From assembly GCA_947643245.1 (NCBI GenBank), contig CANRVI010000002.1, positions 1-41,298 of the forward strand: a stretch of DNA of 41,298 nucleotides, in the 5' to 3' direction. Made by a program: the position numbers and the translations under genes. Shown here piece after piece: positions 8,237-41,298 of the stretch; position 1 is the first letter of the stretch; every line of letters starts with the position of its first letter. The notes under the pieces are model-generated. The model made no database searches. It was not told where the DNA came from and saw only the letters and a program-made list of their open reading frames with translations. The DNA comes from an uncultured Clostridia bacterium (GTDB taxonomy: Bacteria > Bacillota > Clostridia > Oscillospirales > CAG-272).

Positions 8237-8269
8237 ATAAATATCGTCCTTTCTGTATAATCTGTAATC

Positions 8270-8343
8270 ATTGTACTAAACCGCTGATACAGTTTCCATA
8301 GATTCAGCTTACATTTTCCCTTCTATTCTTACATTTTTGTAAG
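8270..8343 (-). promoter_or_regulatory. Putative Bce-type target promoter with two response-regulator boxes
   Basis: On the minus strand: TGGAAA (8293-8298), 17 bp, TACAAT (8270-8275). Upstream, plus-strand CTTACATTTT occurs twice exactly 20 bp apart (8308-8317 and 8328-8337). The distal copy is part of the inverted repeat CTTACA-TTTT-TGTAAG (8328-8343). Confidence 0.45.
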
Positions 8344-8347
8344 GCTG

Positions 8348-9349
8348 TTATTCCACCTGCACATCCTGCCTGCCAAAGTGAACGCAGACACAGGTGCCCT
8401 CTCCCGGCTTAGAAGTGATGGAGAGTTTATGGCACAGCTTTTGACATACCATATTGCAAAGGTACAATCCAAGTCCGGTAGCCTTTTTATCGATCCGACC
8501 ATTGCTGCCGGTAAAGCCCCGCTCAAATACCCGTGGCAAGTCCTCGCTACGAATCCCGATTCCCGTATCCTGCATATGCAGCACCGTTCCTGCGTCGTCT
8601 GTCCATTCACTCCAAATGCGGATTTCCCCGGCGGCAGTATATTTCAGCGCATTGGATAAAAGCTGTTCCGTCACAAATACCAGCCATTTCTCATCGCTGA
8701 TCACAGTACGATCCAGCGCTTCGGTAACGATTCCAATCTTTTTATATATAAAAACAGGTGCGTATTTTTTTATCGCCTGACGGACCACATCGGATAAGTT
8801 ACAGGGCTGGGCACGCAAATCGGCGGCAATAGATCCAATTCGCAGATATTCCAGCGTTAGGCCGGCATATTGCTCAATTTTGAATAGTTCCTGACGCAGC
8901 TGGGGCACATCTAAATCGGTATTCTGCTGGAGCAGCAAACTCATGGCTGCAATCGGCGTTTTAATCTGATGCAGCCACAGGGTGTAAAAATTTTCTGCCT
9001 CTTGCTGCGTTTGCACCTGTTTGGCCAGAAGCATCTCCCTGTCCTGGCACAAACGCATGATAAGGGCATGAAAATCCTGCTCCTCCAAAGTTTTCGCTGC
9101 AGGGAGCTCTTCCAAAAGCACAATACCGCTGCTGCAGACTTGGCAAAGCCTGCGATGCTGCCTGCGGTAACGCATAAAATCCTTTACAGCAACAGGAACC
9201 CCTATAACGCAAAATAGAGCCGCTGCATAAAGTATCGCAGGGAGAGGGATTCGAAATAGGACAAACACCACCGTAAAAATAAGAATAAGCAAAAGCAGCA
9301 GGAAAAGTAGAATCCTGCGGTCTCGCAGATACTGAAAAAACATATGCAT
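8348..9349 (-). CDS. Intramembrane-sensing histidine kinase (BceS-like)
   Basis: Two N-terminal TM helices joined by a very short loop, H-box LWLHQIKTPIAAMSLLL, and a C-terminal HATPase (GTGIGIRSEDLPRVFERGF, GLGLYL). Start is uncertain: ATG 9349 has an AAGG SD, the tracked GTG 9379 has none. Confidence 0.85.
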   Translation of the reverse strand: MHMFFQYLRDRRILLFLLLLLILIFTVVFVLFRIPLPAILYAAALFCVIGVPVAVKDFMRYRRQHRRLCQVCSSGIVLLEELPAAKTLEEQDFHALIMRLCQDREMLLAKQVQTQQEAENFYTLWLHQIKTPIAAMSLLLQQNTDLDVPQLRQELFKIEQYAGLTLEYLRIGSIAADLRAQPCNLSDVVRQAIKKYAPVFIYKKIGIVTEALDRTVISDEKWLVFVTEQLLSNALKYTAAGEIRIWSEWTDDAGTVLHMQDTGIGIRSEDLPRVFERGFTGSNGRIDKKATGLGLYLCNMVCQKLCHKLSITSKPGEGTCVCVHFGRQDVQVE

Positions 9350-9390
9350 AATCCAACCTTTCTTCTCGGTCGATTTCACAGGGCATACTT

Positions 9391-10062
9391 CTACGGAATC
9401 ATATATCCTGCATTTTTCTTCGTTATAATAAAATCGGAAAGACCCACGTCTGCAAGTTTGCGGCGCAGACGGGTCATATTGACAGTGAGCGTATTGTCGT
9501 CAATAAAAGCGTCGCTTTCCCAAAGCCTGTGCATAATCGTGTCTCTTGAGACGATGCTCCCACCGTTTTCCATCAACAACTGCAGAATCCGAAATTCATT
9601 TTTCGTCAGTTCCGTTTTTTGATTTCGGACCTGAAGCGTAGCATCCGCCAAATTCAGGATAGCGCCTCCCCTCTCCAGTAGTTGAGCAGATGCGCCGAAT
9701 GAATAGGTCCGGCGCATCAATGCCTGAACCTTAGCACACAACACAGTAAGGTCAAAAGGCTTCGGGATAAAATCATCCGCCCCCATATTCATGGCCATGA
9801 CAATATTCATTTTGTCCCCCGCTGAAGATAAAAAGATAATCGGAACACTGGACAGGCTGCGAATCTGCTGGCACCAGTAATATCCGTTGAAAAAGGGGAG
9901 AGATATATCCAGCAGCACCAGTTGAGGATCAAAAGACGTAAAGGTTTCCAAAACATGTTGGAAATCCCCGGCGCACAGCGTTTTATATCCCCACCGAACA
10001 AGCTGATTTTCCACCGCCGTCGCAATGGCAGCGTCATCTTCGACAATCAATATTTTATACAT
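9391..10062 (-). CDS. OmpR-family response regulator (BceR-like)
   Basis: MYKILIVEDD, a receiver Asp in VLLDISLP, and a winged-helix C-terminus (TLTVNMTRLRRKL). GGAGG lies upstream of ATG 10062. Confidence 0.9.
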   Translation of the reverse strand: MYKILIVEDDAAIATAVENQLVRWGYKTLCAGDFQHVLETFTSFDPQLVLLDISLPFFNGYYWCQQIRSLSSVPIIFLSSAGDKMNIVMAMNMGADDFIPKPFDLTVLCAKVQALMRRTYSFGASAQLLERGGAILNLADATLQVRNQKTELTKNEFRILQLLMENGGSIVSRDTIMHRLWESDAFIDDNTLTVNMTRLRRKLADVGLSDFIITKKNAGYMIP

Positions 10063-13220: not shown

Positions 13221-13250
13221 AAAATGCCCTGTCATTAGACAGGGCATTTT
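13221..13250. terminator. Bidirectional rho-independent terminator
   Basis: AAAATGCCCTGTC (13221-13233), loop ATTA, GACAGGGCATTTT (13238-13250). It overlaps the stop codon of the minus-strand lipoprotein gene. Confidence 0.8.
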
Positions 13251-14022
13251 ATTCGTCTGCAGAAACTATGTCAACGATCTCCTGAAGGGAAAACAGTTCA
13301 TTTCCATATGGCTGTGTATTGTTTTCATCAGAGAACAATGTGGCATTGTCGGATTTTTCTTCTCGGGGCATATCCGGGTTGATTCTGGATACAGTCTCTC
13401 CGTCAGGTTCTATGCGAAAAAGAGATACTGTTCCCCGCACTCTTTGAAACGCCTGCTCCGGAAGTCCCGAGTTTGGATTCGTTGAATCTATAAAGTAGAT
13501 ATTATAGTCTCCCACTTGCGGGTCCGATTCCCCTTCATATGCTTCATGCAGTATCGTGTTTGCTATTTCTTCATCCGAAAACGATTCAAATATATGTACA
13601 TCATTATATCGGCTAATATGGTCCTGCAAGGGAATGTAACCTCCCCTGTGTAATATGGTTATAAGATCCCCCTGCTCCAAATCTCCTTTGTAGCATTCGT
13701 CAACAGCCAAACTTACTGCTGTAAAAGCATCTCCGTCGAAGGAGGTAAACACAACTTCCTGTATCACACCGCGTACGATTGCGTCAGCTTGTGCAGATAA
13801 CGTAGATATCTTGCTGTCGAACGCATAATCAGCTTGCGTATATACATCATAACAATTCACGTCATCAGATATCTCATATTTCACCGGAGCATCCGCGGTT
13901 AGATCCCGCTTTATCTGTATATCTGGTTTTAAATTAGGCGTGTCTTGCATATGACATCCAGAAAAAATCAATACACATATAAGAAGACTGCTACATATGA
14001 CCAATATCTTTTTTGCTTTCAT
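13249..14022 (-). CDS. Hypothetical lipoprotein, no recognisable domain
   Basis: MKAKKILVICSSLLICVLIFSGC has a good lipobox (FSGC). AAGGAGG SD upstream. The rest is acidic, and I recognise no motif. Confidence 0.6.
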   Translation of the reverse strand: MKAKKILVICSSLLICVLIFSGCHMQDTPNLKPDIQIKRDLTADAPVKYEISDDVNCYDVYTQADYAFDSKISTLSAQADAIVRGVIQEVVFTSFDGDAFTAVSLAVDECYKGDLEQGDLITILHRGGYIPLQDHISRYNDVHIFESFSDEEIANTILHEAYEGESDPQVGDYNIYFIDSTNPNSGLPEQAFQRVRGTVSLFRIEPDGETVSRINPDMPREEKSDNATLFSDENNTQPYGNELFSLQEIVDIVSADE

Positions 14023-14477: not shown

Positions 14478-14483
14478 GATATA

Positions 14484-14696
14484 TACAAATATTCATGCGG
14501 ACCATGTTGTCCGGTAGATTTTTATCTCGTCGTGCCAAGAGAGCCGCTTGGTGGGTGTAAAAGCGGACGCGACAGCCGGATGGTACCAGCCGCAGGTGTA
14601 AATTTATAATAATTGAGTGAAACGCTCGGGTGGAACCGTGCGGACATTGTCCTCACCCCGACACATTTTTGTCGGTGCGGGGATTTTTTCTTTTCC
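14484..14696 (+). promoter_or_regulatory. T-box riboswitch leader (tRNA-Thr responsive) with competing antiterminator and terminator
   Basis: AGAGAG box at 14538-14543. T-box sequence CGGGTGGAACCGTGCGG (14627-14643). Antiterminator: helix A1 TCGGG (14626-14630) with CCCGA (14657-14661), 7-nt bulge TGGAACC (14631-14637), helix A2 GTGCGGAC (14638-14645) with GTCCTCAC (14649-14656). Terminator: 14651-14663 pairs with 14670-14682, followed by ATTTTTTCTTTT. Tentative ACC specifier at 14585-14587, followed by A. Confidence 0.8.
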
Positions 14697-14730: not shown

Positions 14731-16665
14731 ATGCGGATTCAATTTGAAAACGGTCCAACAATGGAACCCGAACAGGTAGCTTCTATATACGACTTGGCTG
14801 CCCAGGCGGGCGCTATCTCCCGGGAGGTAATCGCTGCTGAAATCGATGGAGTGGTCATGGATCTTACTTCCGTAGTATCTCAGGACGCCAACATTCGCCT
14901 GCTTACCTTTGCCGATGAAGCAGGACAGCGGGTATTCAATCACACTGCAAGCCACATTCTGGCCCAGGCGGTAAAACGCCTGTATCCCGAAACGAAACTG
15001 GCAATTGGGCCTGCCATTGACAACGGATTTTACTACGATTTTGATTCAGAAATTTCCTTTACCCCCGAAATTCTTACAAAATTGGAAGGGGAAATGAAGA
15101 AAATTGTAAAGGAAAACCTACGTTTGGAGCGATTTACACTGTCTCGAGATGAGGCAATCGCCCATATGGAGGCTGCAGGAGAGCCCTACAAAGTACAGCT
15201 GATTTCCCGCGTTCCCCAGGGCGAGGAAATTTCTTTCTACCGGCAGGGGGAATTTACCGATCTGTGTGCTGGGGCCCACCTATTTGCTACAGGACTTGTA
15301 AAGGCCATAAAGCTTACCTCCTGTACAGGCGCTTACTGGGAAGGTAACAGCAACAACAAAATGCTGCAGCGTATCTACGGTACGGCCTTTCCCAAAAAAG
15401 ATCAGCTAAATGCATATCTGACTATGGTTGAGGAAGCAAAAAAGCGGGATCACAACAAAATTGGCCGGGAATTGGAGTATTTCACTACAGTAGATGTAAT
15501 TGGTCAGGGGCTGCCAATTCTGATGCCCAAGGGCGCAAAGGTAATCCAGACTCTGCAGCGGTTTGTAGAAGATGAAGAAGCCCGCCGAGGATACGTGCTT
15601 ACAAAAACGCCCTACATGGCAAAGCGTGAGCTGTACAAAATATCCGGACACTGGGATCACTACCGGGACGGTATGTTTGTTTTGGGCGATCCAGATGACG
15701 AAAGCAAGGAATGCCTTGCGCTGCGGCCGATGACCTGTCCCTTCCAGTATCAGGTATATCTAAATAAAAAGCGTTCCTACCGGGATCTGCCTATGCGGCT
15801 TGCAGAAACCTCCACCCTGTTCCGCAACGAGGATTCGGGAGAAATGCATGGACTAATCCGTGTACGCCAGTTTACGATTTCCGAAGCACATATCGTGCTG
15901 CGCCCCGACCAGCTTGCCCAAGAGTTCAAGGGCTGTTTGGAGCTTGCAAACTATATGCTTGAACTTTTGGGTCTGGCAGAGGACTGCACCTACCGGTTCT
16001 CTCAGTGGGATCCTAATAATCGGGAAAAATATGAAGGTACCACTGAACAGTGGGAGGAAGCCCAGGCAGTCATGAAAAACCTGTTAGACGAAATTGGGCT
16101 AGAATATAAAATCGGTATTGATGAAGCCGCTTTCTACGGACCTAAACTGGACATTCAGATCAAGAACGTCCACGGCAAGGAAGACACGCTGATCACCCTG
16201 CAGATTGATATGCTGCTGGCTGAAAAATTTGGTATGGAATATACCGATTCAGACAATACGCAAAAAACGCCGTATATCATCCACCGTACCAGCATCGGTT
16301 GCTACGAACGCACCTTGGCACTGTTGCTGGAAAAATATGCCGGCGCGCTGCCAGTGTGGATTGCGCCTGTACAAGTGACCGTGCTGCCAGTGTCCAATCT
16401 GTTTGAAGAATATGCTGTGCAGGTGCGCGATAAGCTGCAGACCGCCGGTATCCGGGTAGAAATGGACGCTCGCAATGAAAAGATTGGCTATCGTGTACGG
16501 GAAGCACAGCTCTCCAAGGTTCCGTATATGGCCATTGTAGGGGCCGATGAACAGGAAGCCGGAACAGTATCTGTCCGTGCCCGGAAAGAGGGAGAAGGCG
16601 GACTCCTGTCTGTGGACAACTTTATACAAAAGGTTCTCTTAGAAATCGCCGAAAAAAGAAAATAA
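14731..16665 (+). CDS. thrS: Threonine--tRNA ligase
   Basis: 644 aa. N-terminal TGS-like segment, second additional domain (HTASHILAQAVKRLYP), class II core (FRNEDSGEMHGLIRVRQFT), C-terminal anticodon-binding domain. AGGAAAGGA SD upstream. Confidence 0.95.
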   Translation: MRIQFENGPTMEPEQVASIYDLAAQAGAISREVIAAEIDGVVMDLTSVVSQDANIRLLTFADEAGQRVFNHTASHILAQAVKRLYPETKLAIGPAIDNGFYYDFDSEISFTPEILTKLEGEMKKIVKENLRLERFTLSRDEAIAHMEAAGEPYKVQLISRVPQGEEISFYRQGEFTDLCAGAHLFATGLVKAIKLTSCTGAYWEGNSNNKMLQRIYGTAFPKKDQLNAYLTMVEEAKKRDHNKIGRELEYFTTVDVIGQGLPILMPKGAKVIQTLQRFVEDEEARRGYVLTKTPYMAKRELYKISGHWDHYRDGMFVLGDPDDESKECLALRPMTCPFQYQVYLNKKRSYRDLPMRLAETSTLFRNEDSGEMHGLIRVRQFTISEAHIVLRPDQLAQEFKGCLELANYMLELLGLAEDCTYRFSQWDPNNREKYEGTTEQWEEAQAVMKNLLDEIGLEYKIGIDEAAFYGPKLDIQIKNVHGKEDTLITLQIDMLLAEKFGMEYTDSDNTQKTPYIIHRTSIGCYERTLALLLEKYAGALPVWIAPVQVTVLPVSNLFEEYAVQVRDKLQTAGIRVEMDARNEKIGYRVREAQLSKVPYMAIVGADEQEAGTVSVRARKEGEGGLLSVDNFIQKVLLEIAEKRK

Positions 16666-23067: not shown

Positions 23068-23097
23068 GCCGCTCCCGTTGCTTTGCTTCCAATACCC

Positions 23098-24714
23098 ATG
23101 AAACGAAAACATTTGGCTCCCGTAGTCCTTCTGCTGTATTTATGCAGTCTTTTCCTGTGGAGCGGTTGTACGATTCAAGCAGAATACTTGATCGGAGACG
23201 TAAACGGAGATGGAATTGTAGACATGCGGGATGCATGTGCTCTGCATCGATACTTGTCCGGCCGATTCACTCCTATCTCTGCGAAAAACGCAGATTTAAG
23301 CTTTGACGGAGCAATTACAGATATAGATGCCGAGGTTCTGCGCCAGTATCTTGCAGGAATCAGTAATCCAGGCACCCGGTACGCTGCTATCACCATTAAT
23401 GGCGTGGAACTGAATGCATATCAGATCGTAGTATCCAAAAGCGACGGAGACTTTTCCTATTGGGCGGCAGATCAGCTTAGCGATACATTGGAAAACTTCT
23501 GCGGTGTGCGTCTGCCCATTGTTACAGACGATAAAGCGGAAACGGAATATGAGATTCTCATCGGTAATACGAATCTGATAGTCACTGAGGACAGCGCAGA
23601 GTTTCCCGCATTATCCTATATGATCTATGCAGAGGATACCAAAATTGTACTTTTAGGGCCCAATTTTATGGTTGGCGGCGGTGTGGGGTTTCTTACACAT
23701 GAACTGCTGCGCAGCAGTGATGCCTGGAACACACAAGTCGATATTACCATTCCCACAGAGAAACAAATACAAAAATACCATCCGCAAGCCGCGCAAAGCG
23801 TCATTCTAATCATTGGAGACGGCATGGGGCAAAACCATATCCAAATGGCCTGCGATCCAGAAGCGTACGTGCGAGACGAGGAGGGAATGGAAATGCCCGC
23901 TTCCAAAGAGGCTATCGAAACCTTTTGGGCGGCGCAGTTCCCGGTAGCGGGAACTGCTGCCACAAATAATATACTTGGTGGGGTGACAGACTCATCCGCA
24001 TCGGCTACAGCGTTGGCTACCGGTTGGAAAACCCGCAACGGCGTAATCGGTATGCGTCCAAATGCATTTTTAGGCGGCGAAACCGAGTCCCTACGTTCTG
24101 TACAAAATGTGCGGGAGCTTGCTTCCCTTTCCGGGAAAACCACGGCAATTCTTTCTACAGACAGAATTACCGGAGCGACCCCCAACAGTTTTTTGGTACA
24201 TCACAGCTACCGGTTTGATTACAATATTATAGAACAGCAGCAAGAGGCTCTTTCGGAAAGCGAGCTTGCATGTGATTTCCTTTGGTGCAGCTACGACGAC
24301 AATGCATTTTTGAGCCAGTTGCAGAAAGCCCTTCATGCAGCAGCCTCCAACAATAGCGGCTTTTTTCTAATGGCAGAGGAAGCCATGATAGACAAATATG
24401 CCACCAAGCTGGACTACAACGAAACCATTCGTACCGTTTCCAGGCTGAACGACTGTGTCGCCTATGCGGCTCTTACAGCAGTCTGTCATCCGGATATTGC
24501 TGTAATTGTGACTGCGGATCATGAAACCGGAGGTCTGACTGTTTCAGAGGATGGGGTCTATACCTGGACCTCTGACGGGGAGCACACGGGTACACCTGTA
24601 CCGGTATATGCAATTGGCGCTGGTACTGAAATGTTTCACAGTACCCTTGTAGAAAATACGGATATTGCCAAATACATTGCGTCTGTATTTGGTGCCTCCT
24701 CTTTTGGAGGATAG
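23098..24714 (+). CDS. Secreted or lipid-anchored alkaline phosphatase with an N-terminal dockerin and an intervening alpha/beta module
   Basis: Signal peptide MKRKHLAPVVLLLYLCSLFLWSGC. Dockerin duplicate DVNGDGIVDMRD / DLSFDGAITDID. PhoA-family blocks ILIIGDGMGQNH, VTDSSASATALATG (Ser nucleophile), GATP, EEAMIDK, VTADHETGG, EHTGTPVPVYA. No SD upstream of either candidate start (TTG 23083 or ATG 23098). Confidence 0.75.
   Translation: MKRKHLAPVVLLLYLCSLFLWSGCTIQAEYLIGDVNGDGIVDMRDACALHRYLSGRFTPISAKNADLSFDGAITDIDAEVLRQYLAGISNPGTRYAAITINGVELNAYQIVVSKSDGDFSYWAADQLSDTLENFCGVRLPIVTDDKAETEYEILIGNTNLIVTEDSAEFPALSYMIYAEDTKIVLLGPNFMVGGGVGFLTHELLRSSDAWNTQVDITIPTEKQIQKYHPQAAQSVILIIGDGMGQNHIQMACDPEAYVRDEEGMEMPASKEAIETFWAAQFPVAGTAATNNILGGVTDSSASATALATGWKTRNGVIGMRPNAFLGGETESLRSVQNVRELASLSGKTTAILSTDRITGATPNSFLVHHSYRFDYNIIEQQQEALSESELACDFLWCSYDDNAFLSQLQKALHAAASNNSGFFLMAEEAMIDKYATKLDYNETIRTVSRLNDCVAYAALTAVCHPDIAVIVTADHETGGLTVSEDGVYTWTSDGEHTGTPVPVYAIGAGTEMFHSTLVENTDIAKYIASVFGASSFGG
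23194..23358 (+). other. Dockerin type-I-like module (two EF-hand-like Ca loops plus helices)
   Basis: GDVNGDGIVDMRDACALHRYLSG...NADLSFDGAITDIDAEVLRQYLAG. Confidence 0.75.
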
Positions 24715-29726: not shown

Positions 29727-31766
29727 TTATCGTTGTCCATCAATCCCATACACAAACTGCATAGGGCTGACAGCAAGAGAAAAAGCTTTTTCAAGGCCGG
29801 TCTGGTTATATGTCACCGGAATACCAAGTTCGTTCACCATATCATACCATGTCCGGTATCCAGCCGCATAGGCTTCGCGCTGCGCTTCTGTACCATTTTT
29901 ATACTGATCCTCATATGTAGCGCTGTACCCCAAAAACAGCATATGTACCGACAAACGCCGGACATTTTCCCGCTCCCAGTCTGTCTCACAGGCTGACATA
30001 GCCTTTGCAAACAGTTCCTGCATCGTATCAAAGTGGGCTGCAAAATAGCTTTTTGAATAGATGTCAAAAGGATATTCATAGTCGTTGAGAACACAGCCCA
30101 TTTCGTCTCCAGCCTGGATGAGCATTTGAATATATGTATATATATGCGACCAGCCCGGTCCGTAATATGCTCGTAAATATTCTTCCATACGCAGGATGTA
30201 TTCTTCCTCTACCATACCGCCGTCCCACATAAGCTCAGAAAGAAGATATGCGTCCAGTCCCTCAAAAGAACTGCCGGCCGTGCCGACTACATAAAAACCG
30301 GTGGCTTTATGTTCCATAAACCAGACAAAGTCATTATATAGATTGGCAAGATTAGGCTGCGGACACAGCAAATAATAAATGTTTGTAGGATAGTACCAAA
30401 TATAAGTCTGCGAACAGTGCTCTGTCCATCCAAGATAATAGGCTTCTTCCTTGATATTGGAGTAGCCTAGACCGTTACCGCCCGCTTCACATTCCCCGCT
30501 GCCTATAGGATGGTTTGCACATCCATTCCAACAATACAGCAGTACGACTTCCTCATTCAGTACTGCATCTCTTGGCGGAATACGCACATCTCCATAGGCG
30601 TTGGTAATTACCCGAATGCCTGGGTACTCCTGGCGCAAGGCATCGTCAATTCGATTTACAAAGGGCACCAATACACCGGCCTGGCTTCCCTCTGCCTGAT
30701 AGGTAGCGCTGCACTCTGCACACACGCAAAATCGCCCCTCAGCAGAATAGGCACAGGAAATTTCTGTAATATCCTTCCCTACAACACCTCCGGCGGCAAT
30801 CCGCTCATCCAATAACTTTTTCATATTAAAAAGGCAGGTTTCATAAGAGGTTTCTGATGACAGACAAGGCACAGCTGCATCTGGAATAAAGTAGTCCAGG
30901 GAATGTGCGTTCAAAAACAGACGCTGAATTCCGTATCCATACTCTGGACGTAGCATACTGGATTGGGCGCTGCATCCGCTAAGCTTGCGTTTAATTACGG
31001 AAGAATATGTATAATCATTTTTAAAAGGATCGATGGTTACACAGCGATATCGTACCGAAGGAACCTGTTCGTCACGCATTCCATTTGGCAGATCCACCGT
31101 TTGGGCTGTATACAGCACTTTGTCGTCATACCCTAAAAATCGGTAGCCAACATATTCCTCCAACAGTTCGTATACACCATACATCACGCCTCTTGCAGCG
31201 CCGCCCATTATAGTCAGTATTCCATCAGAAACAGAAATGGAAAATCCGTCGTCTCCTAAATTGCGGGATCCGTCATCGGCGCATAGTACAATTTGATAGG
31301 GAGCAGAGGAGGTGCCCGCAGCAATGGGAAGTGTTCTGCCGCAGGCTTCCTTTACATATTTTTGCAGTTCCTGGGCTGCAAACACAATATTAGCGTTGTC
31401 GGGGTCTGCTGCCAAAATGGTATATTTCCCGATATTTTTTCCCGCAATAGTGATAGTTCCAACATTGGTATCGGGCACGGGATATTTTTCCGTTATATCA
31501 ATTGCTCCAGCCAAATGCAGTTTGAGCATCAAGCTATCCATCGCAAGTACCTCACCGTCTCCATCCACATCGGCAAGATCCAGTTCAATCCAATCAATTG
31601 CATTGGCAAGATATTTCATCAATTCCAAAGCGTCCAAAGGTGTCAATTCACCATCTTCGTCAATATCCCCCCGCACAAAGGATGCCGCACCAGCCGGCAC
31701 GGCAACAACAACAGCTGAGAGGAGCATGGAAAGAACCAGGAGAGCAGAAATCAGCTTTTTTTTCAT
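29727..31766 (-). CDS. Secreted dockerin-containing DUF4838-like protein (putative glycoside hydrolase-like)
   Basis: Signal peptide MKKKLISALLVLSMLLSAVVVAVPAGAA. Dockerin DIDEDGELTPLD / DVDGDGEVLAMD. Then a large domain with a CAYSAEGRFCVCAECSATYQAEGSQAGVLVPFVNRI block that I associate with DUF4838. The family assignment is from memory. Confidence 0.6.
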   Translation of the reverse strand: MKKKLISALLVLSMLLSAVVVAVPAGAASFVRGDIDEDGELTPLDALELMKYLANAIDWIELDLADVDGDGEVLAMDSLMLKLHLAGAIDITEKYPVPDTNVGTITIAGKNIGKYTILAADPDNANIVFAAQELQKYVKEACGRTLPIAAGTSSAPYQIVLCADDGSRNLGDDGFSISVSDGILTIMGGAARGVMYGVYELLEEYVGYRFLGYDDKVLYTAQTVDLPNGMRDEQVPSVRYRCVTIDPFKNDYTYSSVIKRKLSGCSAQSSMLRPEYGYGIQRLFLNAHSLDYFIPDAAVPCLSSETSYETCLFNMKKLLDERIAAGGVVGKDITEISCAYSAEGRFCVCAECSATYQAEGSQAGVLVPFVNRIDDALRQEYPGIRVITNAYGDVRIPPRDAVLNEEVVLLYCWNGCANHPIGSGECEAGGNGLGYSNIKEEAYYLGWTEHCSQTYIWYYPTNIYYLLCPQPNLANLYNDFVWFMEHKATGFYVVGTAGSSFEGLDAYLLSELMWDGGMVEEEYILRMEEYLRAYYGPGWSHIYTYIQMLIQAGDEMGCVLNDYEYPFDIYSKSYFAAHFDTMQELFAKAMSACETDWERENVRRLSVHMLFLGYSATYEDQYKNGTEAQREAYAAGYRTWYDMVNELGIPVTYNQTGLEKAFSLAVSPMQFVYGIDGQR
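31506..31670 (-). other. Dockerin type-I-like module
   Basis: GDIDEDGELTPLDALELMKYLAN...LADVDGDGEVLAMDSLMLKLHLAG. Confidence 0.75.
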
Positions 31767-34029: not shown

Positions 34030-34557
34030 TTACTTAAATGCAAAATGCTCCAGCACCAGATCCAGTTCATCCAAATGATCCTCATAATACTTCGGGGTGG
34101 AAGTGTAGGTAATATAATATACATAGTTTTCTCGTACAGCAGCAACAATTATATATTGATATTCCTTTTCGTTCAGCGTTGCATCAAATGCATATTTCAT
34201 TCCATCGACGCCGCCTAATACCGTCTTTTCTTCCGCGGTCACTTCCATTTCTTCATAGATACTTGCAAACTGTTCCGCATAGCTTTCCCACCAAGAAGAA
34301 ACAGTATCGTCCGTCATATTCATGCCGAATGCTGTAACGGATATGCTGGTGGCATCTCCGGATGAAAAGTAGGCAGCGGCGTAAAGTGAGGATTTATCCA
34401 CGCGCCAACCTTCCGGTACGTAAAACAGATAATCCGCATCTTCCGATGAGGCAAGCTGCATACCAGCGGGAACACTCGAATCCTGTTTTTCACACCCACC
34501 CAGAACCATACTTAGGGCAAGCAGAAGCGTCACCAGAAAAAATCCTGTTTTCTTCAT
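34030..34557 (-). CDS. Hypothetical lipoprotein
   Basis: MKKTGFFLVTLLLALSMVLGGC has a lipobox (LGGC). GGAGG SD before ATG 34557. I recognise no domain with confidence. Confidence 0.6.
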   Translation of the reverse strand: MKKTGFFLVTLLLALSMVLGGCEKQDSSVPAGMQLASSEDADYLFYVPEGWRVDKSSLYAAAYFSSGDATSISVTAFGMNMTDDTVSSWWESYAEQFASIYEEMEVTAEEKTVLGGVDGMKYAFDATLNEKEYQYIIVAAVRENYVYYITYTSTPKYYEDHLDELDLVLEHFAFK

Positions 34558-34601
34558 CGTTATATCCTTACCTCCTTTGGATTCAAGCAAACTGCCCCCA
34601 C

Positions 34602-35846
34602 TTACTCATAGATAGGATATTGCTTGCAAATCTGTGTAACTGCGTCCCGGATATAATCTGCTTTTGCATCAAAATCTGTTGCTGCCAAAGCCATCAGGTT
34701 GGCTAAGGTCTTCATCTCAGAAACGCCCAGACCGCGCGTCGTCACTGCCGGCGTACCAACACGGATACCGCTGGTGACAAAAGGCTTTTCCGGATCGTTG
34801 GGAATGGAATTTTTATTAACCGTGATATACACCTGATCCAGTCTCTGCTCCATTTCTTTGCCAGTAATATGCATAGGCCGCAGGTCAACTAGCATCAAAT
34901 GGTTGTCCGTTCCCCCGGATACTAAATCAAAGCCCTCTGCAAGAAGCCCCTCTGCAAGAGCCTTTGCGTTTTCTACAATTTTTTTCTGATATTCCTTAAA
35001 AGTAGGATCCAAAGCTTCCCCAAAACAAACAGCTTTGGAGGCAATGATATGCTCCAGCGGACCGCCCTGCATACCAGGGAACACCGCTTTATTTATCTTC
35101 TTTGCTATCTCTTCGTCATTACAAAGAATCAATCCGCCTCTGGGACCGCGCAGTGTCTTGTGGGTTGTCGTGGTAACTACATCCGCATAAGGTATCGGAG
35201 AAGGATGAAGCCCTGCCGCAACCAGACCGGCAATATGCGCCATGTCCACCATAAACATAGCGCCTACGTTTTTAGCAATTTTAGAAATCCGCTCAAAATC
35301 AATGGTTCTAGCATATGCAGACGCGCCGGCGATGATCAATTTGGGAGTGCATTCTTTTGCGGTCTTTTCCATTACATCATAATCAATAAAGCCATTTTCG
35401 TCTACGCCGTAGGGAACAAAATTATAATTTATGCCGGAAAAGTTTACAGGGCTGCCATGAGTCAGGTGACCGCCATGTGCCAGGTTCATGCCCATAACGG
35501 TATCCCCATGAGAAAGCAGCGCCATATAAACGGCGGTATTAGCCTGTGCGCCAGAGTGAGGCTGCACATTAGCGAAGTTTGCGCCAAAAAGCTTGCAGGC
35601 ACGCTGAATGGCAATAGTTTCAATTACATCCACGCATTCGCAGCCACCATAATATCTGCGTCCTGGGTAGCCTTCTGCATATTTATTTGCAGGTGGAGTT
35701 GCCATTGCGAGCATGACAGCTTCCGAAATCATATTTTCGCTGGCGATCAGCTCCAAGCCTCTTTTTTCCCGCTGCAATTCTGCGGCAACAGCATTACCGA
35801 TCTCTGGATCTGCCTTTTGAAGTTTTTCAATTACTGACTGAACCAT
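34602..35846 (-). CDS. glyA: Serine hydroxymethyltransferase
   Basis: [23 protein letters not shown], and the PLP-lysine block [16 protein letters not shown]. Confidence 0.95.
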
Positions 35847-35897
35847 TATTATATCTTCCCTTCATTTTCGTTTTTTACTTCTTATAATAATACCTTT

Positions 35898-35926
35898 ATT
35901 ATACAGGATGTACTATCGCTTTGCAA
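35898..35926 (-). promoter_or_regulatory. Candidate glyA promoter
   Basis: Minus strand reads TTGCAA (35921-35926), 17 bp, TATAAT (35898-35903). Confidence 0.5.
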
Positions 35927-35959
35927 CAGAATTTTATGAACATCAGAAGGATTTTGCAC

Positions 35960-35995
35960 AAAAAAAGCCGCAGGTTTTTACCCGCGGCTTTTTAT
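35960..35995 (-). terminator. Rho-independent terminator of the cohesin-repeat protein gene
   Basis: AGCCGCAGG (35966-35974) pairs with CCCGCGGCT (35981-35989) with one mismatch. Flanked by A- and T-runs. Confidence 0.75.
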
Positions 35996-36004
35996 TCTAA
36001 AAAT

Positions 36005-38359
36005 TTATACCGTTTCCTTCTTCTTACGAATCAGGACAACTGCTGTACATGCTGCAGCTGCAACTGCTGCTGCAATAAAGATATACATCATGTTGTCGCC
36101 AGTCTGCGGAGGCTTTTTATTATCCCCTGCAGAAGCAGTGGTATCCTCTCCTTCGGGAGCAGTCGTTACAGGAGGTTCCGGTTCCGGATCTGTTCCGTTT
36201 TTGTCAGCCTCATATGCTTTATACAGGGCAAGATATGTTTCATATGCCTCTGCAGCACCAAGCTTAAATTGTGCTAATTCAACGGGAGACAATCCGCCAA
36301 TTGTAGCAATAATTTCTTCCAAAGCTGCTTTGTCAGCGTCTGTCATATCTTCATATGCCGGCAATGCAAGAATTTTTTCTTCCAAGCTAGCCAACAGTTC
36401 ATAATCTACATCTTCTGTGCCAAGAATTTCAACATACTTTGCAACGAGATCATAAAAAGTTTCCGGATAATTCAACGCAATATAATCAGAGTTTATGGAA
36501 TCCTCTTCTTCCATAAGTACGAGAGAATACAACAACTCGATTACCTGTGCTTTTTCTTCTGCTGTCGCTGTATCAGAAGCCAACAGTTTTTCTGCAGCTT
36601 CTAAAAATGCGTTTACTTGATCCATGTCTACTGTATCAGTACCGCCATAAACCAGTTTAAAGAATGCATTCACAAAGTTATCATATGCTTCGGGAACATC
36701 CTGTTTGAGCTGCGGAGCAAAGAAACTGCCCAATATGATCTCATACAGTTCTGTTACTTCATCCAGAGAGTCTTCTGTAATCTCTTCATAATCAGGAAGT
36801 GCTTCCAGACGCGCTATCAGCTCTTTTACCATCATATCCTGCTGATATAGCACATAGTTTGCCGCCAGTGCTGTGAGCGCATCTCCATAATTGTCCAACA
36901 AATACTGCTGGTCTGCAGTGTCTTCAATTGTTTTCATCAATGCTACCAGTTCCAGCATTTCTTCAACCTGGTCTTCTGTCATATCATAGTAGCTTGCAGG
37001 AAGTGCAATAATTCTTGCAGCCAATGCATCCAGTTCCTGTACGCGTGTATATCTGGCATAAGACTCCTGGAGTCTGGTGTAAGCATCGCTGTAATTTTCT
37101 TTAATATAGTTTACGTCTGCTTCAGGCATAGCATCAAGCTGTTCAACCAGTGCAAGCATCTCTTCAATCTGTGCTGCACTCATCTCTGCATATGCAGGCA
37201 GTGCTTCTACTTTTGCACCTACGGCTTTCAGATCCTCAATATGTGCATAAGCAGCCAAAGAAGCTTCAAATCTTGCATAGTCGTCTGCAAAAGTGTTTTT
37301 CACATAGGCCAAATCATCAGCAGCCAGGGCTTCCAGTTCTTCCTGCAAAGCCAGCATTTCAGTGATCTGTGCCTCAGTCATCTGGTCAAAATCCGGCAGG
37401 GCAGCCAATTTCGCGCCATATGCTTTCAATCCTTCCTCGTGCATAAATGCTTCATAGGAAGCTTCCAGGCGTGCAATTGCATCTGCATATGTAGTTTCCA
37501 CATATGTTTTTGCTTCACCTTCCAACGCAGCAAGCTCTGTGCGCAGCGTGAGCATTTCCTGAACCTGTGTTTCGCTCATCTCTGCATATGCAGGCAGCGC
37601 TTCTACTCTTGCACCCAACGCATCCAGTTTTACTTTTTCCTGCGCCCACAAATGTGCAGCATATAATCCATCAATCTTCTCAATTGCATCTGCATGGCTC
37701 TCTGCAAAGTAAGCCGCTGCTCTACCTTCCAGTGCATGAACATCTTCATAAAGGGCCAGCATAGCGGTGATCTGCTCGTCCGTCAATTCGTCATATTCGC
37801 CCAGTGCCAGCACATCAGCTGCCAGTTGATCCAATTCAGTTGTATCAATGGGAACATACTGCGGACACTCGTTGATAATCTCCATTGTGTGCGGAACTTT
37901 AGTTCCATCGTCTGTTACACCAAAAACTTCTTTGGGGTTAATAGACAGATTCACATTGAAGTCTGCATCCTGGTTAAGGATTTCAAAAGTGTAAACAGCA
38001 ACAACACCACTATTTGTATTGTTTACATTATAAGAAACAGACTGCGCATAATATGTTACAGGATTGCTGTTGATATTACCAGCAAGGTATTCCTGTGCAG
38101 ACCACACATCCTTGTTTTCAATGGATGTGAGCTTTAATGCGCTTGCATTGTAACCAACAAAGGTTCTGTAGCACCACAGGCCAGGGTTATTGCCCAGTGT
38201 TACCGTCATAGTCAACGTAGTTTTGTCGTCGCTGATTTCTCCTGTAATATGGGTATATAGATCCGAGTCAGGAAGATCAGCGGCCGTTCCCGGAACAACA
38301 GCTACAAGTCCGGCAACAAGCATTGCTGCAACAACCAGCAATGAAATAAGCTTTTTCAT
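36005..38359 (-). CDS. Sortase-anchored surface protein: signal peptide, cohesin-like module, ~8 helical 66-aa repeats, Pro/Thr linker, PPQTG sorting signal
   Basis: Start set to ATG 38359 (MKKLISLLVVAAMLVAGLVAVVPGTA) because it has a GGAGG SD, and a consensus promoter (38394-38422) occupies the longer tracked ORF. C-terminus: KKPPQTGDN, then a hydrophobic stretch (MMYIFIAAAVAAAACTAVVLI), then RKKKETV. Confidence 0.75.
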   Translation of the reverse strand: MKKLISLLVVAAMLVAGLVAVVPGTAADLPDSDLYTHITGEISDDKTTLTMTVTLGNNPGLWCYRTFVGYNASALKLTSIENKDVWSAQEYLAGNINSNPVTYYAQSVSYNVNNTNSGVVAVYTFEILNQDADFNVNLSINPKEVFGVTDDGTKVPHTMEIINECPQYVPIDTTELDQLAADVLALGEYDELTDEQITAMLALYEDVHALEGRAAAYFAESHADAIEKIDGLYAAHLWAQEKVKLDALGARVEALPAYAEMSETQVQEMLTLRTELAALEGEAKTYVETTYADAIARLEASYEAFMHEEGLKAYGAKLAALPDFDQMTEAQITEMLALQEELEALAADDLAYVKNTFADDYARFEASLAAYAHIEDLKAVGAKVEALPAYAEMSAAQIEEMLALVEQLDAMPEADVNYIKENYSDAYTRLQESYARYTRVQELDALAARIIALPASYYDMTEDQVEEMLELVALMKTIEDTADQQYLLDNYGDALTALAANYVLYQQDMMVKELIARLEALPDYEEITEDSLDEVTELYEIILGSFFAPQLKQDVPEAYDNFVNAFFKLVYGGTDTVDMDQVNAFLEAAEKLLASDTATAEEKAQVIELLYSLVLMEEEDSINSDYIALNYPETFYDLVAKYVEILGTEDVDYELLASLEEKILALPAYEDMTDADKAALEEIIATIGGLSPVELAQFKLGAAEAYETYLALYKAYEADKNGTDPEPEPPVTTAPEGEDTTASAGDNKKPPQTGDNMMYIFIAAAVAAAACTAVVLIRKKKETV
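36008..36112 (-). other. Cell-wall sorting signal (PPQTG, TM segment, basic tail)
   Basis: PPQTG (36098-36112) fits the (S/P)PxTG variant of LPxTG reported for clostridial sortase substrates. It is followed by a 21-aa hydrophobic segment and RKKKETV. Confidence 0.7.
36203..37840 (-). repeat. Tandem coding repeats, ~198 nt (66 aa) period, about 8 copies, diverged
   Basis: The anchor motif A-L-P/G-x-[YF]-x-[EDQ]-[ML]-[TS] recurs at tracked-ORF residues 206, 275, 341, 407, 473, 541 and 686, giving spacings of 69, 66, 66, 66, 68 and 145. A 41-nt segment is 39/41 identical at 37179-37219 and 37575-37615, an offset of 396 nt. Confidence 0.8.
37853..38275 (-). other. Cohesin-like beta-sandwich module (tentative)
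   Basis: LTMTVTLGNNPGLWCYRTFVGYNASALKLTSIENKD...GVVAVYTFEILNQD follows the pattern (V.V.L.NNPG....F.V.Y....L.L) that I associate with cohesin domains of Clostridia. Not verified by HMM. Confidence 0.5.
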
Positions 38360-38393
38360 CTGGATTTTACCTCCAAGTTTTTGATACATTTTT

Positions 38394-38422
38394 ATTATAG
38401 TTGTTTGCAGTCTGAATGTCAA
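38394..38422 (-). promoter_or_regulatory. Consensus sigma-A promoter of the cohesin-repeat protein gene
   Basis: Minus strand reads TTGACA (38417-38422), 17 bp, TATAAT (38394-38399). Confidence 0.6.
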
Positions 38423-38524
38423 GTCATTTTTCTTTTATTTCATTGAAAAATACAAGCATATTTTATAATATTTTGACTTTTTGTCCATTATTTTTTATTG
38501 TTTCCTACAATAGTTATTGAACGT

Positions 38525-38556
38525 AAAAAAGCCTCCACAAATGTGGAGGCTTTTTT
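38525..38556. terminator. Rho-independent terminator after the multi-LamG dockerin gene
   Basis: GCCTCCAC (38531-38538), loop AAAT, GTGGAGGC (38543-38550), flanked by A6 and T6. Confidence 0.85.
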
Positions 38557-38575
38557 CCTACTAAGCTTGTATAAC

Positions 38576-41298
38576 TTAGGCATTTTCCTCTGCAAGATGT
38601 TTTCTGATACGGAGCTGGTCTTTTGCATCAATAGAACCATCAAAGTTCACATCTGCTCTAGACTTAGCAGTAAATCCGTCTTCATCAATAATCTTTGCAA
38701 GATACTGTCTCATAAGAGCAGCATCGGATACAGTGATATCGTTGTCGCCATCTACGTCGCCATTCCAATCCTTGTTCCAGGAGAAGTCACGGCTACCTAT
38801 ATGGAAATCATCCATATCAAATGCTATACCATAGTTCCAGAAGTAGAAAGCATCAATCGCATCAGATCCATATTTGCACTGTGCCCAAGCGTCACGAGGT
38901 GCCATTTCTACAACCTTCACACCATTTACATACAAAGCAAATTCAGAATTCAGTATTCCTTCAGCCGCATCTTCAGGTGTATAGCTTCTTACCTCAAAGT
39001 TGTATTTTTCACCAGGAACCAGCTTAATCTTAGAACTGTCGGTACGCTTGAAAGCGTTATTATAACCTCTGATAAAGAATACTTCATTATCAGCATCGTA
39101 ACCAACCTGTGCCTGACCCAGCGCCTGTTTACCGACATTGAGAGCAAACACGTGACCATAGGACTCAGTTGCCCCAGTATCATAAGTATTGTTGAAAATG
39201 AAATCAAATCCAATGGTAAAGCCGTTATTATTCAGATCAGAACCATTGCGGTTTGTTCCCAGCTTAATACGGTTGTAGTTGCCGTCGCTATCGGTATATC
39301 TAGCAACACCATCTTCAAAGATAAAGGAAACTTCTTCCTTACTGGATGTAATCTGCATAAAGTCATCTGTAAAGTCATGGAAGAATGTCAGCACACCAGT
39401 GTAAGCCTCAACTTCAGGAAGAAATGCAAATCTCTTCTCTGTGCAACCACTGCTTGTTTTACATGTGGTGTAAATAATCTTGTTGCCTTCATCATTTTCT
39501 TCAACACGAGTGAAGTCATAGTCATAGTAGCTATGCTGCAGCTTTGCTACTTCTTTTTTGTCTTCAGTGCCGCCGCAAATATAACATGTATAGGTGTTTG
39601 TACCTTCATCATAGCACTTAGGCTCTGTTGTTCTTGCCCATCTGTACACATGGCCGTTTGCGTTGCAGAAGTCTTCTCCGGTTGCTTTTACATCGTCAAC
39701 CTTTGTATAGTAATCTTCTCCATCACCAATTTCAAATCCATCGGTCTTCTTTGTAAACTCTGCATCATAAATTTTATAGTTATTAATAACAGCAGTACCG
39801 TTATTCATATATAAAATGTTAATTCCATCAAAGAACTGCATGCCTGTATTAGCAGTGTAAACTTCTTCCTGGTCAATATACAGTGTTACACTACCGTATG
39901 CAACAAGAATTGCTACATTATGAAATTTACCAGCCGTCCAAGGAGCCATATTTTTTACAGCTTCAGGAGCACCTGTAGCATCTTCGCCATAGTACCACAG
40001 GTCTTTGCCCTTACCTACAAATTTATCACCAAATTTCACACGGCTATTATCACCGTCTCCCATTTTATTGACAATAAATTCGATCCATGTACCATTGTTG
40101 TACTTGTCGCTGAAGTTCGTAATATTTTCCTGGTCAGGATACAATGCCACGTCAAAAATCACAGCGTAGCTGGCAGCAGTGTAAGCGTTATCCTGGGTGA
40201 GGTATGCAGAGTTCGGTGTTTTCGGATTGGGATTCTTGTCGCTATTAAATCCACTCCGCAGAACAAAGCCTTCACCTCCTACGGTATCAGCGGTAATATG
40301 ATCAAAAAGGTTGATCTCAGGAACTTTATATTCGCCCTGTACCAGACCGTCGCCAGTAAAGGAACCTGCCCAGTCATCACCCTCAAAATCAATTACAGCA
40401 GCATTACCTACTTTAAGGTTATCCATAGCCAGGCCTTCAGCGGTGAAGGTAAAGCCAGTATCTGTAAGAGAAGCACCAGACAGCACAGGGAAATCGTTGC
40501 TTCCAGTTACTTCTACACCGTTTACGAAAATTTGTGTTTTTGTTGTGCCAACAGCATACTCTACATAATACCATTCGTCAGTCTTAAAGGTATAAGCAGC
40601 AGTTTCGCTTCCTACACCAATTGCATCACTGGTGATGGAAATGCCGTCGCCGTTAGATGTCAGTGCTTTTGTTGCATCGCCTGTAAAGCTGATATCAAAG
40701 CCAATTGCATAGGTGCCGTCTTCATTTTTCCAGTTATCACCCGCATTTACAGTGGTAGCAGCCGCTACTTCAGCAGATACCGCATGCTTCAAGCCCAGAC
40801 CACGTCTGTATTCAATACCAGTAATCTTATCGCCGCTAGCCTGCCCTGAGCCCTTCTCTGTTCCATCAAAATCACGTGAAAACTGCGTATCGTTACCATC
40901 GCTCATTGTGATGTTGTCCATAGCGACATTCAAACCGCCGCTAAATAAGGTTTTGATGTGGGGAAGCTGACCGTCTACCGTACCAATCTTCACATCGTTG
41001 ACGAAAATGTCCGTCTTACCTGCTTCAGCGCCGCCGGTTCTTATTTTAATGGAATACTTTGTGTTGATATCAAACGCATAAGGAATCGTTTTGTTTTCCT
41101 TATTTAGCTTGATACCGATTTCTGAAGAAGTAACATACCATCTGTCGTCACTACCATAAGTAGAGTCAGAACCGAGGAATCCATCTTCTGTCAGGAACCA
41201 CAAATCAAAGTGGAAATTGCGGTTCGCGGCAGAAAGACTACCGATCTCCAAATATGTTACTTTTGCAGCAGTCGATCCAAAGGGAACCGTATACACAT
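38576..41298 (-). CDS. Large secreted multi-LamG/concanavalin-like protein with a 4-Cys insert and C-terminal dockerin; 5' end outside the window
   Basis: The ORF is open to the window edge (more than 906 aa). At least four jelly-roll-like units end in the LamG-style strand (DIFVNDVKIG, QIFVNGVEVTG, TLYIDQEEVY, ALYVNGVKVV). C-terminal dockerin DVDGDNDITVSD / DVNFDGSIDAKD. Confidence 0.7.
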   Translation of the reverse strand, partial: VYTVPFGSTAAKVTYLEIGSLSAANRNFHFDLWFLTEDGFLGSDSTYGSDDRWYVTSSEIGIKLNKENKTIPYAFDINTKYSIKIRTGGAEAGKTDIFVNDVKIGTVDGQLPHIKTLFSGGLNVAMDNITMSDGNDTQFSRDFDGTEKGSGQASGDKITGIEYRRGLGLKHAVSAEVAAATTVNAGDNWKNEDGTYAIGFDISFTGDATKALTSNGDGISITSDAIGVGSETAAYTFKTDEWYYVEYAVGTTKTQIFVNGVEVTGSNDFPVLSGASLTDTGFTFTAEGLAMDNLKVGNAAVIDFEGDDWAGSFTGDGLVQGEYKVPEINLFDHITADTVGGEGFVLRSGFNSDKNPNPKTPNSAYLTQDNAYTAASYAVIFDVALYPDQENITNFSDKYNNGTWIEFIVNKMGDGDNSRVKFGDKFVGKGKDLWYYGEDATGAPEAVKNMAPWTAGKFHNVAILVAYGSVTLYIDQEEVYTANTGMQFFDGINILYMNNGTAVINNYKIYDAEFTKKTDGFEIGDGEDYYTKVDDVKATGEDFCNANGHVYRWARTTEPKCYDEGTNTYTCYICGGTEDKKEVAKLQHSYYDYDFTRVEENDEGNKIIYTTCKTSSGCTEKRFAFLPEVEAYTGVLTFFHDFTDDFMQITSSKEEVSFIFEDGVARYTDSDGNYNRIKLGTNRNGSDLNNNGFTIGFDFIFNNTYDTGATESYGHVFALNVGKQALGQAQVGYDADNEVFFIRGYNNAFKRTDSSKIKLVPGEKYNFEVRSYTPEDAAEGILNSEFALYVNGVKVVEMAPRDAWAQCKYGSDAIDAFYFWNYGIAFDMDDFHIGSRDFSWNKDWNGDVDGDNDITVSDAALMRQYLAKIIDEDGFTAKSRADVNFDGSIDAKDQLRIRKHLAEENA
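38597..38767 (-). other. Dockerin type-I-like module (C-terminal)
   Basis: NGDVDGDNDITVSDAALMRQYLAK...RADVNFDGSIDAKDQLRIRKHL. Confidence 0.75.

Follow-up and report, generated by a model that had tools for sequence, protein, structure and literature searches.

The DNA examined here is a 41,298-nucleotide stretch (the 41-kb window) of contig CANRVI010000002.1 from an uncultured Clostridia bacterium, and the gene in question lies on its minus strand at 36005-38359. An earlier reading of this DNA (the original prediction) had described the product as an anchoring-scaffoldin-like protein, in which a single cohesin-like module is carried on a helical repeat stalk that ends in a cell-wall sorting signal. 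The open reading frame (ORF) extends over 36005-38422 if counted from an upstream TTG codon; a start at the ATG at 38359 makes better biological sense, giving a protein of 784 amino acids plus stop codon, for which 21 homologues were retrieved. Plus-strand ORFs overlapping the gene were rejected as real genes, as these lie wholly within the conserved minus-strand gene.

Transcription signals were found on both sides of the gene, in the places where the original prediction had put them. A consensus scan of 35500-39000 gave a sole perfect promoter match, a sigma-70-type TTGACA-17-TATAAT at 38422-38394 on the minus strand that agrees with the consensus at 12 of 12 positions. A GGAGG ribosome-binding site could be read from the sequence 10 nt 5' of the ATG (38370-38374, minus strand), and the 5' untranslated region amounts to only about 27 nt. 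At the other end, where a terminator had been proposed at 35960-35995, folding detected an intrinsic terminator (35955-35993, minus strand) consisting of a 14-bp hairpin, with its stem at 35993-35962, followed by U7 (-22.1 kcal/mol, z = -4.5); a consensus terminator scan had overlooked this hairpin. The next gene upstream, which encodes a LamG-dockerin protein, has a terminator-like hairpin and T-run of its own, read from the sequence at 38525-38550 (minus strand). Given that each gene is thus furnished with its own signals, the two appear to form separate transcription units, and the scaffoldin-like gene looks like an independent one.

The encoded protein begins with a signal peptide of 27 residues (38279-38359, minus strand), read from the sequence as MKK, a hydrophobic core and PGTAA ahead of the aspartate that follows, which is 84% conserved across the family. 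It is followed by a single cohesin module at residues 28-170 (37850-38278, minus strand), this assignment being based upon an AlphaFold2 model, Foldseek comparisons and the Pfam matches of homologues. The model of residues 26-176, built on an alignment of 12 non-redundant homologues, comprised nine beta strands and no helix (predicted local distance difference test score, pLDDT, 87.3; predicted template modelling score, pTM, 0.82), which bears out the beta-rich module of about 140 amino acids originally described and corresponds to the nine-stranded beta-sandwich (jelly-roll) of the cohesin fold. Foldseek comparison of this model with the PDB retrieved 64 matches at E <= 1e-3, of which the best 50 were cohesins without exception. 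The best match was 4ums, the type I cohesin Coh7 of P. cellulosolvens ScaB (E 4.9e-8, template modelling (TM) score 0.70), and the next-ranked type I cohesins originated from C. cellulolyticum, C. acetobutylicum, A. cellulolyticus and C. thermocellum, the best type I TM scores being 0.65-0.70. Type II and R. flavefaciens cohesins were placed lower in this ranking, with R. flavefaciens ScaC only 28th. The cohesin module is hence described here as type-I-like, on the strength of its best structural matches.

Sequence comparisons of the module were less uniform in outcome. When scanned singly, 11 of the 12 homologues of residues 26-176 matched the Pfam Cohesin family (PF00963), with a best E-value of 1.9e-6. 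A profile of the module homologues gave a single, weak match against PDB sequences, to the CipC cohesin of C. cellulolyticum (E 0.42), and the whole window protein had no significant match among PDB sequences. Scanning the window protein against Pfam and NCBIfam returned the C-terminal anchor as its only match, and a word-index homology search with the cohesin profile retrieved fragments of its own family only. As modelled, the N-terminal module is a cohesin fold; a generic immunoglobulin or carbohydrate-binding module fold, which had been named beforehand as the finding that would speak against a cohesin, was not what the Foldseek comparison returned.

Two cysteine residues of the module, Cys63 and Cys165 (38171-38173 and 37865-37867), did not vary among the 21 homologues. 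The sequence GNNPGLWC, where strand 3 begins, holds one of them, and NxCPQ holds the other, shortly past the last strand, where the module joins the stalk; the pair may be linked by a disulfide, which would pin the base of the stalk to the cohesin.

The stalk occupies residues 174-722 (36194-37840, minus strand) and was resolved by repeat alignment, DNA periodicity and an AlphaFold2 model into eight repeats of about 66 amino acids, corresponding to a 198-nt period, in agreement with the roughly eight acidic, Ala/Leu/Glu-rich repeats that had been noticed beforehand. The repeats comprise residues 174-242, 243-308, 309-374, 375-440, 441-508, 509-576, 577-653 and 654-722, and the composition of the stalk is strongly acidic (pI 4.05, net charge -85; Ala 17%, Leu 13%, Glu 13%). 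Pairwise identities among the eight repeats ranged from 16% to 47%, and in the DNA a 198-nt periodicity persists at 63-78% identity. Tandem Repeats Finder detected no 198-nt period in the DNA, reporting only a 6/12-nt GCTGCA run at 36051-36075 that falls within the Ala-rich membrane helix of the sorting signal; the stalk repeats are therefore old and diverged.

The AlphaFold2 model of residues 166-726, for which the alignment held 13 sequences, was all-alpha with a pLDDT of 92.1, as anticipated for a helical stalk of about 550 amino acids. Helices of approximately 40 residues cross the repeat borders in this model. In repeats 1-5 and 8, a loop after the 'ALP' motif leads into a 15-residue helix and then into one of 10 residues; past a kink, the latter is prolonged by a helix of about 30 residues that reaches the next 'ALP'. 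Modelling of the repeats had been proposed together with the original prediction, and the outcome is a series of predicted three-helix units, in which consecutive units share one long helix in a spectrin-like wiring. Repeats 6-7 display shorter helices and an irregular pattern.

In its degree of conservation the stalk equals the cohesin, the mean pairwise identity per repeat being 57-72% versus 67% for the cohesin, which argues for a folded element under selection as opposed to low-complexity filler. A motif in the sixth repeat, PEAYxNFVNAxxKLxxGG (the R6 motif), is nearly invariant among homologues. The number of repeats appears to vary among relatives, a comparison that had likewise been suggested at the outset: in the alignment of homologues, exactly one repeat is missing in four proteins (P0006, P0018, P0019 and P0020) and two are missing in a fifth (P0021). 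These deletions of 66-amino-acid repeats are seen against near-identical full-length relatives and have their junctions inside the conserved motif ALPAYAEMT.AQV.EML, so that they represent either a true repeat-number polymorphism, arising by recombination between repeats, or the collapse of repeats in short-read assemblies.

Between the stalk and the sorting signal is a flexible linker rich in Pro, Thr and Glu (residues 723-749; 36113-36193, minus strand), which from its composition is predicted to cross the cell wall. This linker, TDPEPEPPVTTAPEGEDTTASAGDNKK, is the least conserved segment of the protein (56%), and the pLDDT falls at its start (residues 723-726), where the stalk model stops. 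The cell-wall sorting signal itself spans residues 750-784 (36008-36112, minus strand) and has the layout of a sortase substrate, with a motif followed by a hydrophobic stretch and a basic tail. Exactly as stated by the original prediction, these are PPQTG (residues 750-754; 36098-36112, minus strand), a hydrophobic helix and the tail RKKKETV. The signal scored above the cut-offs of both Pfam Gram_pos_anchor (PF00746; 26.8 bits, cut-off 20) and TIGR01167 (20.8 bits, cut-off 15.9), and below that of Rumino_NPXTG (NF033846), the model for ruminococcal NPXTG-anchored proteins (13.3 bits, cut-off 23.5).

The (S/P)PXTG motif, to which the original prediction had likened this signal, has been shown experimentally to be cleaved by sortase B (SrtB) of Clostridioides difficile, between the T and the G (PMC4155245). 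This enzyme cleaved PPKTG and SPQTG best, and did not cleave NVQTG in vitro (PMC4155245). PPQTG fits this class, and like the motifs of the C. difficile substrates it is followed by an aspartate. The resemblance holds for the window protein and does not extend to the whole family, in which QTGDN is invariant (21 of 21 homologues) and the preceding residues vary: PVQTG was present in 11 homologues, PPQTG in only six, TPQTG in three and APQTG in one, so that the family-wide motif is better written x[P/V]QTGDN. As PVQTG, TPQTG and APQTG are outside of (S/P)PXTG, the cognate sortase here probably has its own specificity, differing somewhat from that of C. difficile SrtB.

The family comprises 21 homologues (clusters) at 46-94% identity, and a genome scan with the family motifs among GTDB species representatives recovered only six loci, in six GTDB species. 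All six belong to metagenome-assembled genomes of uncultured Clostridia or Eubacteriales, and none is titled Limousia or Ruminococcus. Sources of the family include a mouse-gut assembly, the assembly Lapin-012, an isolate name that may hint at rabbit, and Candidatus Avispirillum faecium, and the window sequence itself is present in mouse-gut metagenomes.

Directly upstream of the scaffoldin-like gene, and co-oriented with it, is a gene for a multi-LamG protein with a C-terminal type I dockerin (38576-41296, minus strand; Dockerin_1 E 1.4e-10, Laminin_G_3), the 5' end of which is cut by the window. This adjacency, which had been remarked upon in the original prediction, is not peculiar to the window. 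A LamG-dockerin gene of about 950 codons was located immediately upstream in all three related loci examined (L001, L003 and L006), in which the scaffoldin-like homologue has 94%, 74% and 57% identity, and glyA was found downstream in all three; in L001 the LamG-dockerin gene is complete (6924-9785). Its product is a probable lectin or adhesin. Between its LamG-like regions is a Cys-rich mini-segment, CNANGHVYRWARTTEPKCYDEGTNTYTCYICGG...CKTSSGC, which has the look of a small insert stabilised by zinc or by disulfides.

Two other dockerin proteins are encoded in the window, at 23083-24714 (plus strand) and 29727-31766 (minus strand), an alkaline phosphatase and a DUF4838/GH67N-like putative glycosidase, and in both of these the dockerin is N-terminal, right behind the signal peptide. 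The genome thus supplies the dockerin proteins expected alongside a scaffoldin, with three in the window alone. The non-cellulolytic nature of this cargo suggests a cellulosome-like system serving something besides cellulose.

Both the scaffoldin-like gene and its LamG-dockerin neighbour are covered by contigs assembled from four mouse-gut metatranscriptomes. In X23 and X24, the two runs in which most of the scaffoldin-like gene is present, contig depth was about 5-9 for the former and 17-27 for the latter, about three times as much; in the other two (X25 and X26) coverage was patchier, with depths of 2 or less and 0-9, respectively. The contigs of the two genes were unjoined, and about 13 kb of adjacent housekeeping genes were nearly uncovered in the same metatranscriptomes. 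This coverage fits the perfect promoter, and parallels the highly expressed cSca5 scaffoldin of Limousia.

The stalk had no significant match in Pfam, its repeat profile had none among PDB sequences, and a word-index homology search with that profile retrieved fragments of its own family only. Foldseek comparison of the whole stalk with the PDB yielded nothing at E <= 1e-3, the best match being a designed Protein A-DHR14 repeat with a TM score of 0.11, a global comparison which is uninformative for a long rod. An exhaustive hidden Markov model search with the stalk repeat profile over 1.84 billion representative proteins retrieved 37 proteins at E <= 1e-3, amongst which its own family was represented by one protein (P0016) and fragments. 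Most of the other matches (proteins P0029-P0062) contained 2-22 copies of a unit of about 52-70 amino acids, 'INALPxxxxVTxxDKxAIEAARxAYDALTxxQKxxV', here termed the INALP-type repeat; some weak matches of the repeat profile, to TPR, IQ-motif and HTH proteins, are probably spurious.

Alignment of the stalk repeat with the INALP-type repeat by hhalign gave a probability of 93.6% (E 2e-7, 44 columns), and an independent run gave 91%. In both repeats the unit starts with ALP-x4-(M/V)T, follows a helix-loop-helix-loop-helix pattern and is arranged in tandem. The stalk unit differs in being longer and in having another third helix, such that only the first 44 of its 66 positions align, and the stalk repeats are far more diverged from one another. 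From these profile alignments, the stalk repeat is a diverged and lengthened distant relative of the INALP-type repeat, which has itself no name. The original prediction, which knew of no described family for the stalk repeat, was accordingly right insofar as no Pfam or PDB family was matched, and incomplete in that the repeat has distant kin that are widespread.

The INALP-type repeat is common in surface proteins of Firmicutes and Bacteroidota. The 28 matches that were scanned have mostly secreted or surface architectures, with domains including Big_2, Big_3, SLH, Flg_new, GLUG, DUF6273 and FIVAR, and three carriers (P0031, P0032 and P0035) end in C-terminal dockerins. No Pfam cohesin or sortase anchor was found in these 28 relatives, and it therefore seems that cohesin, stalk and sorting signal occur together solely in the family described here. 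In Pfam, DUF3106 and LTXXQ were all that the INALP-type repeat matched, and none of the individual stretches matched was significant by itself; its profile matched only designed helical proteins and Spy among PDB sequences, with weak scores and no solved structure of the repeat. The nearest to an exception among the scanned proteins is P0036, an otherwise unrelated helical-repeat protein that ends in AAKAPQTGD and a hydrophobic tail, with no anchor called by Pfam; sorting signals of the xPQTGD form thus recur in other proteins of uncultured Clostridia.

With the cohesin fold, helical repeats, sorting signal, dockerin context and synteny that were computed above, we consider it likely that the product is a sortase-anchored scaffoldin of the monovalent kind, in which a stiff helical spacer keeps the cohesin off the cell wall; from these features we infer that the cohesin binds dockerins, which partner it takes, that the anchoring is covalent, and how rigid and how long the rod is. 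The protein would be exported by means of its Sec signal peptide, following which a sortase, as its signal implies, would cut x[P/V]QTG between the T and the G and join the protein covalently to peptidoglycan, leaving the 27-residue Pro/Thr/Glu linker to traverse the wall. In each of the eight acidic repeats, a short hairpin is predicted to pack on a long helix that runs into the next repeat, and wiring of this spectrin-like kind would produce a stiff rod, for which helix arithmetic suggests a length of roughly 25-35 nm. At the tip of the rod, the single type-I-like cohesin indicated by the model and the fold search would capture dockerin-bearing proteins. The prime candidate for such cargo is the adjacent, syntenic and strongly transcribed LamG-dockerin protein, and other possible partners are further dockerin proteins of the genome, of which the alkaline phosphatase and the DUF4838/GH67N-like protein are encoded in the window, or an adaptor scaffoldin. 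Cargo that is cellulosome-like but non-cellulolytic would in this way be displayed at a set distance from the wall.

Sortase-anchored scaffoldins are known from other gut Clostridia. These include Sca2 and Sca5 of R. bromii (PMC12663171), ScaE of R. flavefaciens and R. champanellensis (PMC11557425, PMC13463774), which the original prediction had correctly cited as sortase-linked, and cSca5 of Limousia pullorum, in which the cohesin is N-terminal and an LPxTG is found at the C-terminus, and whose gene exceeds all others of its genome in expression (PMC12997984). The window protein resembles ScaE, Sca2 and cSca5 in having a signal peptide, an N-terminal cohesin, no catalytic domain and a C-terminal signal of the LPXTG type, all of them in dockerin-rich genomes of gut Clostridia, and it resembles cSca5 further in that the latter is very highly expressed (PMC12997984), the gene described here having a perfect promoter and being visible in metatranscriptomes. 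It differs from all three in its x[P/V]QTG motif and in the approximately 550 amino acids of folded helical repeats placed between the cohesin and the wall signal; in R. bromii Sca2 and Sca5, spacing is provided by extended unstructured linkers (PMC12663171), and no description of a helical stalk in an anchoring scaffoldin was found in the literature. The single cohesin with a sortase signal and no catalytic domain is shared with ScaE-type scaffoldins in particular, whereas the ruminococcal (type III) cohesin and the location in a sca cluster are not, since the fold here matches type I and the neighbours are the LamG-dockerin gene, glyA and other housekeeping genes. There was no detectable sequence homology between the window protein and ScaE, Sca2 or cSca5, judged for the last of these from the genome scan with the family motifs, in which no locus was titled Limousia.

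The comparison with spectrin is by way of analogy only. In spectrin arrays, as in the predicted structure of the stalk, the last helix of one unit runs unbroken into the first helix of the next, and a continuous helix between units is what stiffens rods of the spectrin type. The unit is shorter here, at about 66 amino acids versus about 106, and no spectrin-repeat match was found for the whole stalk, either in Pfam or by Foldseek against the PDB at E <= 1e-3.

Several observations count against the interpretation of the protein as an anchored scaffoldin. The window protein did not match the Pfam Cohesin family even at E <= 10, and its identity to solved cohesins is just 10-18%. No sortase gene was found in the 41-kb window, nor in the adjoining 10 kb upstream in L001. 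Both AlphaFold2 models were built on shallow alignments of 12-13 sequences, and the pTM of the stalk model is only 0.53, which leaves the global straightness and length of the stalk without a firm footing; repeats 6-7, from their irregular modelled pattern, may constitute a more globular helical domain. The contig depth from metatranscriptomes is, moreover, a crude and poor measure of expression.

Other interpretations of the same features can be weighed against that of a general scaffoldin. In a narrower version of it, the cohesin would serve solely the dockerin of the neighbouring LamG protein, in place of general enzyme display, and the two genes together would specify a modular adhesin, that is, a lectin-tipped stalk for host or dietary glycans. 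We regard this as a serious possibility that nonetheless falls short of being probable. There is only one cohesin and the neighbour has LamG/ConA-like lectin domains, their adjacency is strictly kept across 57-94% identity, and few genes of the region besides these two are represented in metatranscriptomes, the LamG gene at about three times the depth; however, promoter and terminator are separate for each gene, further dockerin proteins are encoded nearby, and promiscuous binding, or binding of adaptor scaffoldins, is frequent among the cohesins of anchoring scaffoldins (PMC12997984, PMC12663171). The stalk, for its part, could be more than a passive spacer, given that its conservation equals that of the cohesin, that the R6 motif is nearly invariant and that repeats 6-7 are off pattern. 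It would then be an interaction or oligomerisation module, bundling laterally into a surface layer or binding a host or matrix ligand, with the cohesin being secondary. Such a role seems unlikely to us, as a net charge of -85 speaks against self-association, the tolerance of homologues for the loss of one or two whole repeats fits a spacer that sets length, and the presence of related repeats in many unrelated architectures is as expected of a generic spacer.

A further alternative separates the cohesin fold from dockerin binding altogether, such that the beta-sandwich would itself be a ligand-binding or adhesive tip, and the whole protein a sortase-anchored adhesin of the ordinary kind with a helical stalk. 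The low identity to functional cohesins (10-18%), the want of a Pfam match for the window protein itself and the occurrence of INALP-type helical repeats in many non-cellulosomal surface proteins would all be compatible with such a tip. The top 50 fold matches are, however, exclusively dockerin-binding cohesins, the genome is rich in dockerins with one dockerin gene syntenically locked to the scaffoldin-like gene, and dockerins require a cohesin partner somewhere in the genome; we hold this alternative to be very unlikely.

Should the protein be the anchored monovalent scaffoldin that we favour, the folded, acidic and spectrin-like rod would mean that distance from the wall is set by a rigid element and changes in steps of whole repeats. 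A bolder proposal, which we put forward tentatively and with some doubt, is that the eight-repeat rod is an undescribed stalk module of cellulosome-like systems, with a display distance of tens of nanometres that is tunable by the gain or loss of whole repeats, and that together with its LamG-dockerin partner it makes a dock-on adhesin, among the most abundant surface structures of a mouse-gut lineage. The candidate dockerin cargo, comprising a lectin-like LamG protein, an alkaline phosphatase and a DUF4838 protein and not cellulases, would add to the evidence for cohesin-dockerin systems of gut Clostridia that extend beyond the breakdown of cellulose, such as the mucinolysome (PMC12997984). 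As its cohesin is invisible to Pfam, the window protein would also exemplify a scaffoldin that is missed by screens relying upon sequence only. The searches additionally exposed a very widespread helical repeat of surface proteins that has no proper family and no solved structure.

Elsewhere in the window, two minus-strand ORFs, at 13249-14022 (257 amino acids) and 34030-34590 (186 amino acids), had no Pfam match at E <= 1e-5; the 186-codon gene is kept between glyA and an aminotransferase gene in both L003 and L006. No tRNA genes were found, and an Rfam scan of the whole window gave nothing at gathering thresholds. A weak match to a T-box leader was nevertheless detected at 14483-14663 on the plus strand (25.8 bits versus a gathering score of 93, E 0.0012), situated in the 708-nt gap 5' of thrS (14731-16665), the gene for threonyl-tRNA synthetase, and it is probably a divergent T-box that falls below the Rfam threshold.

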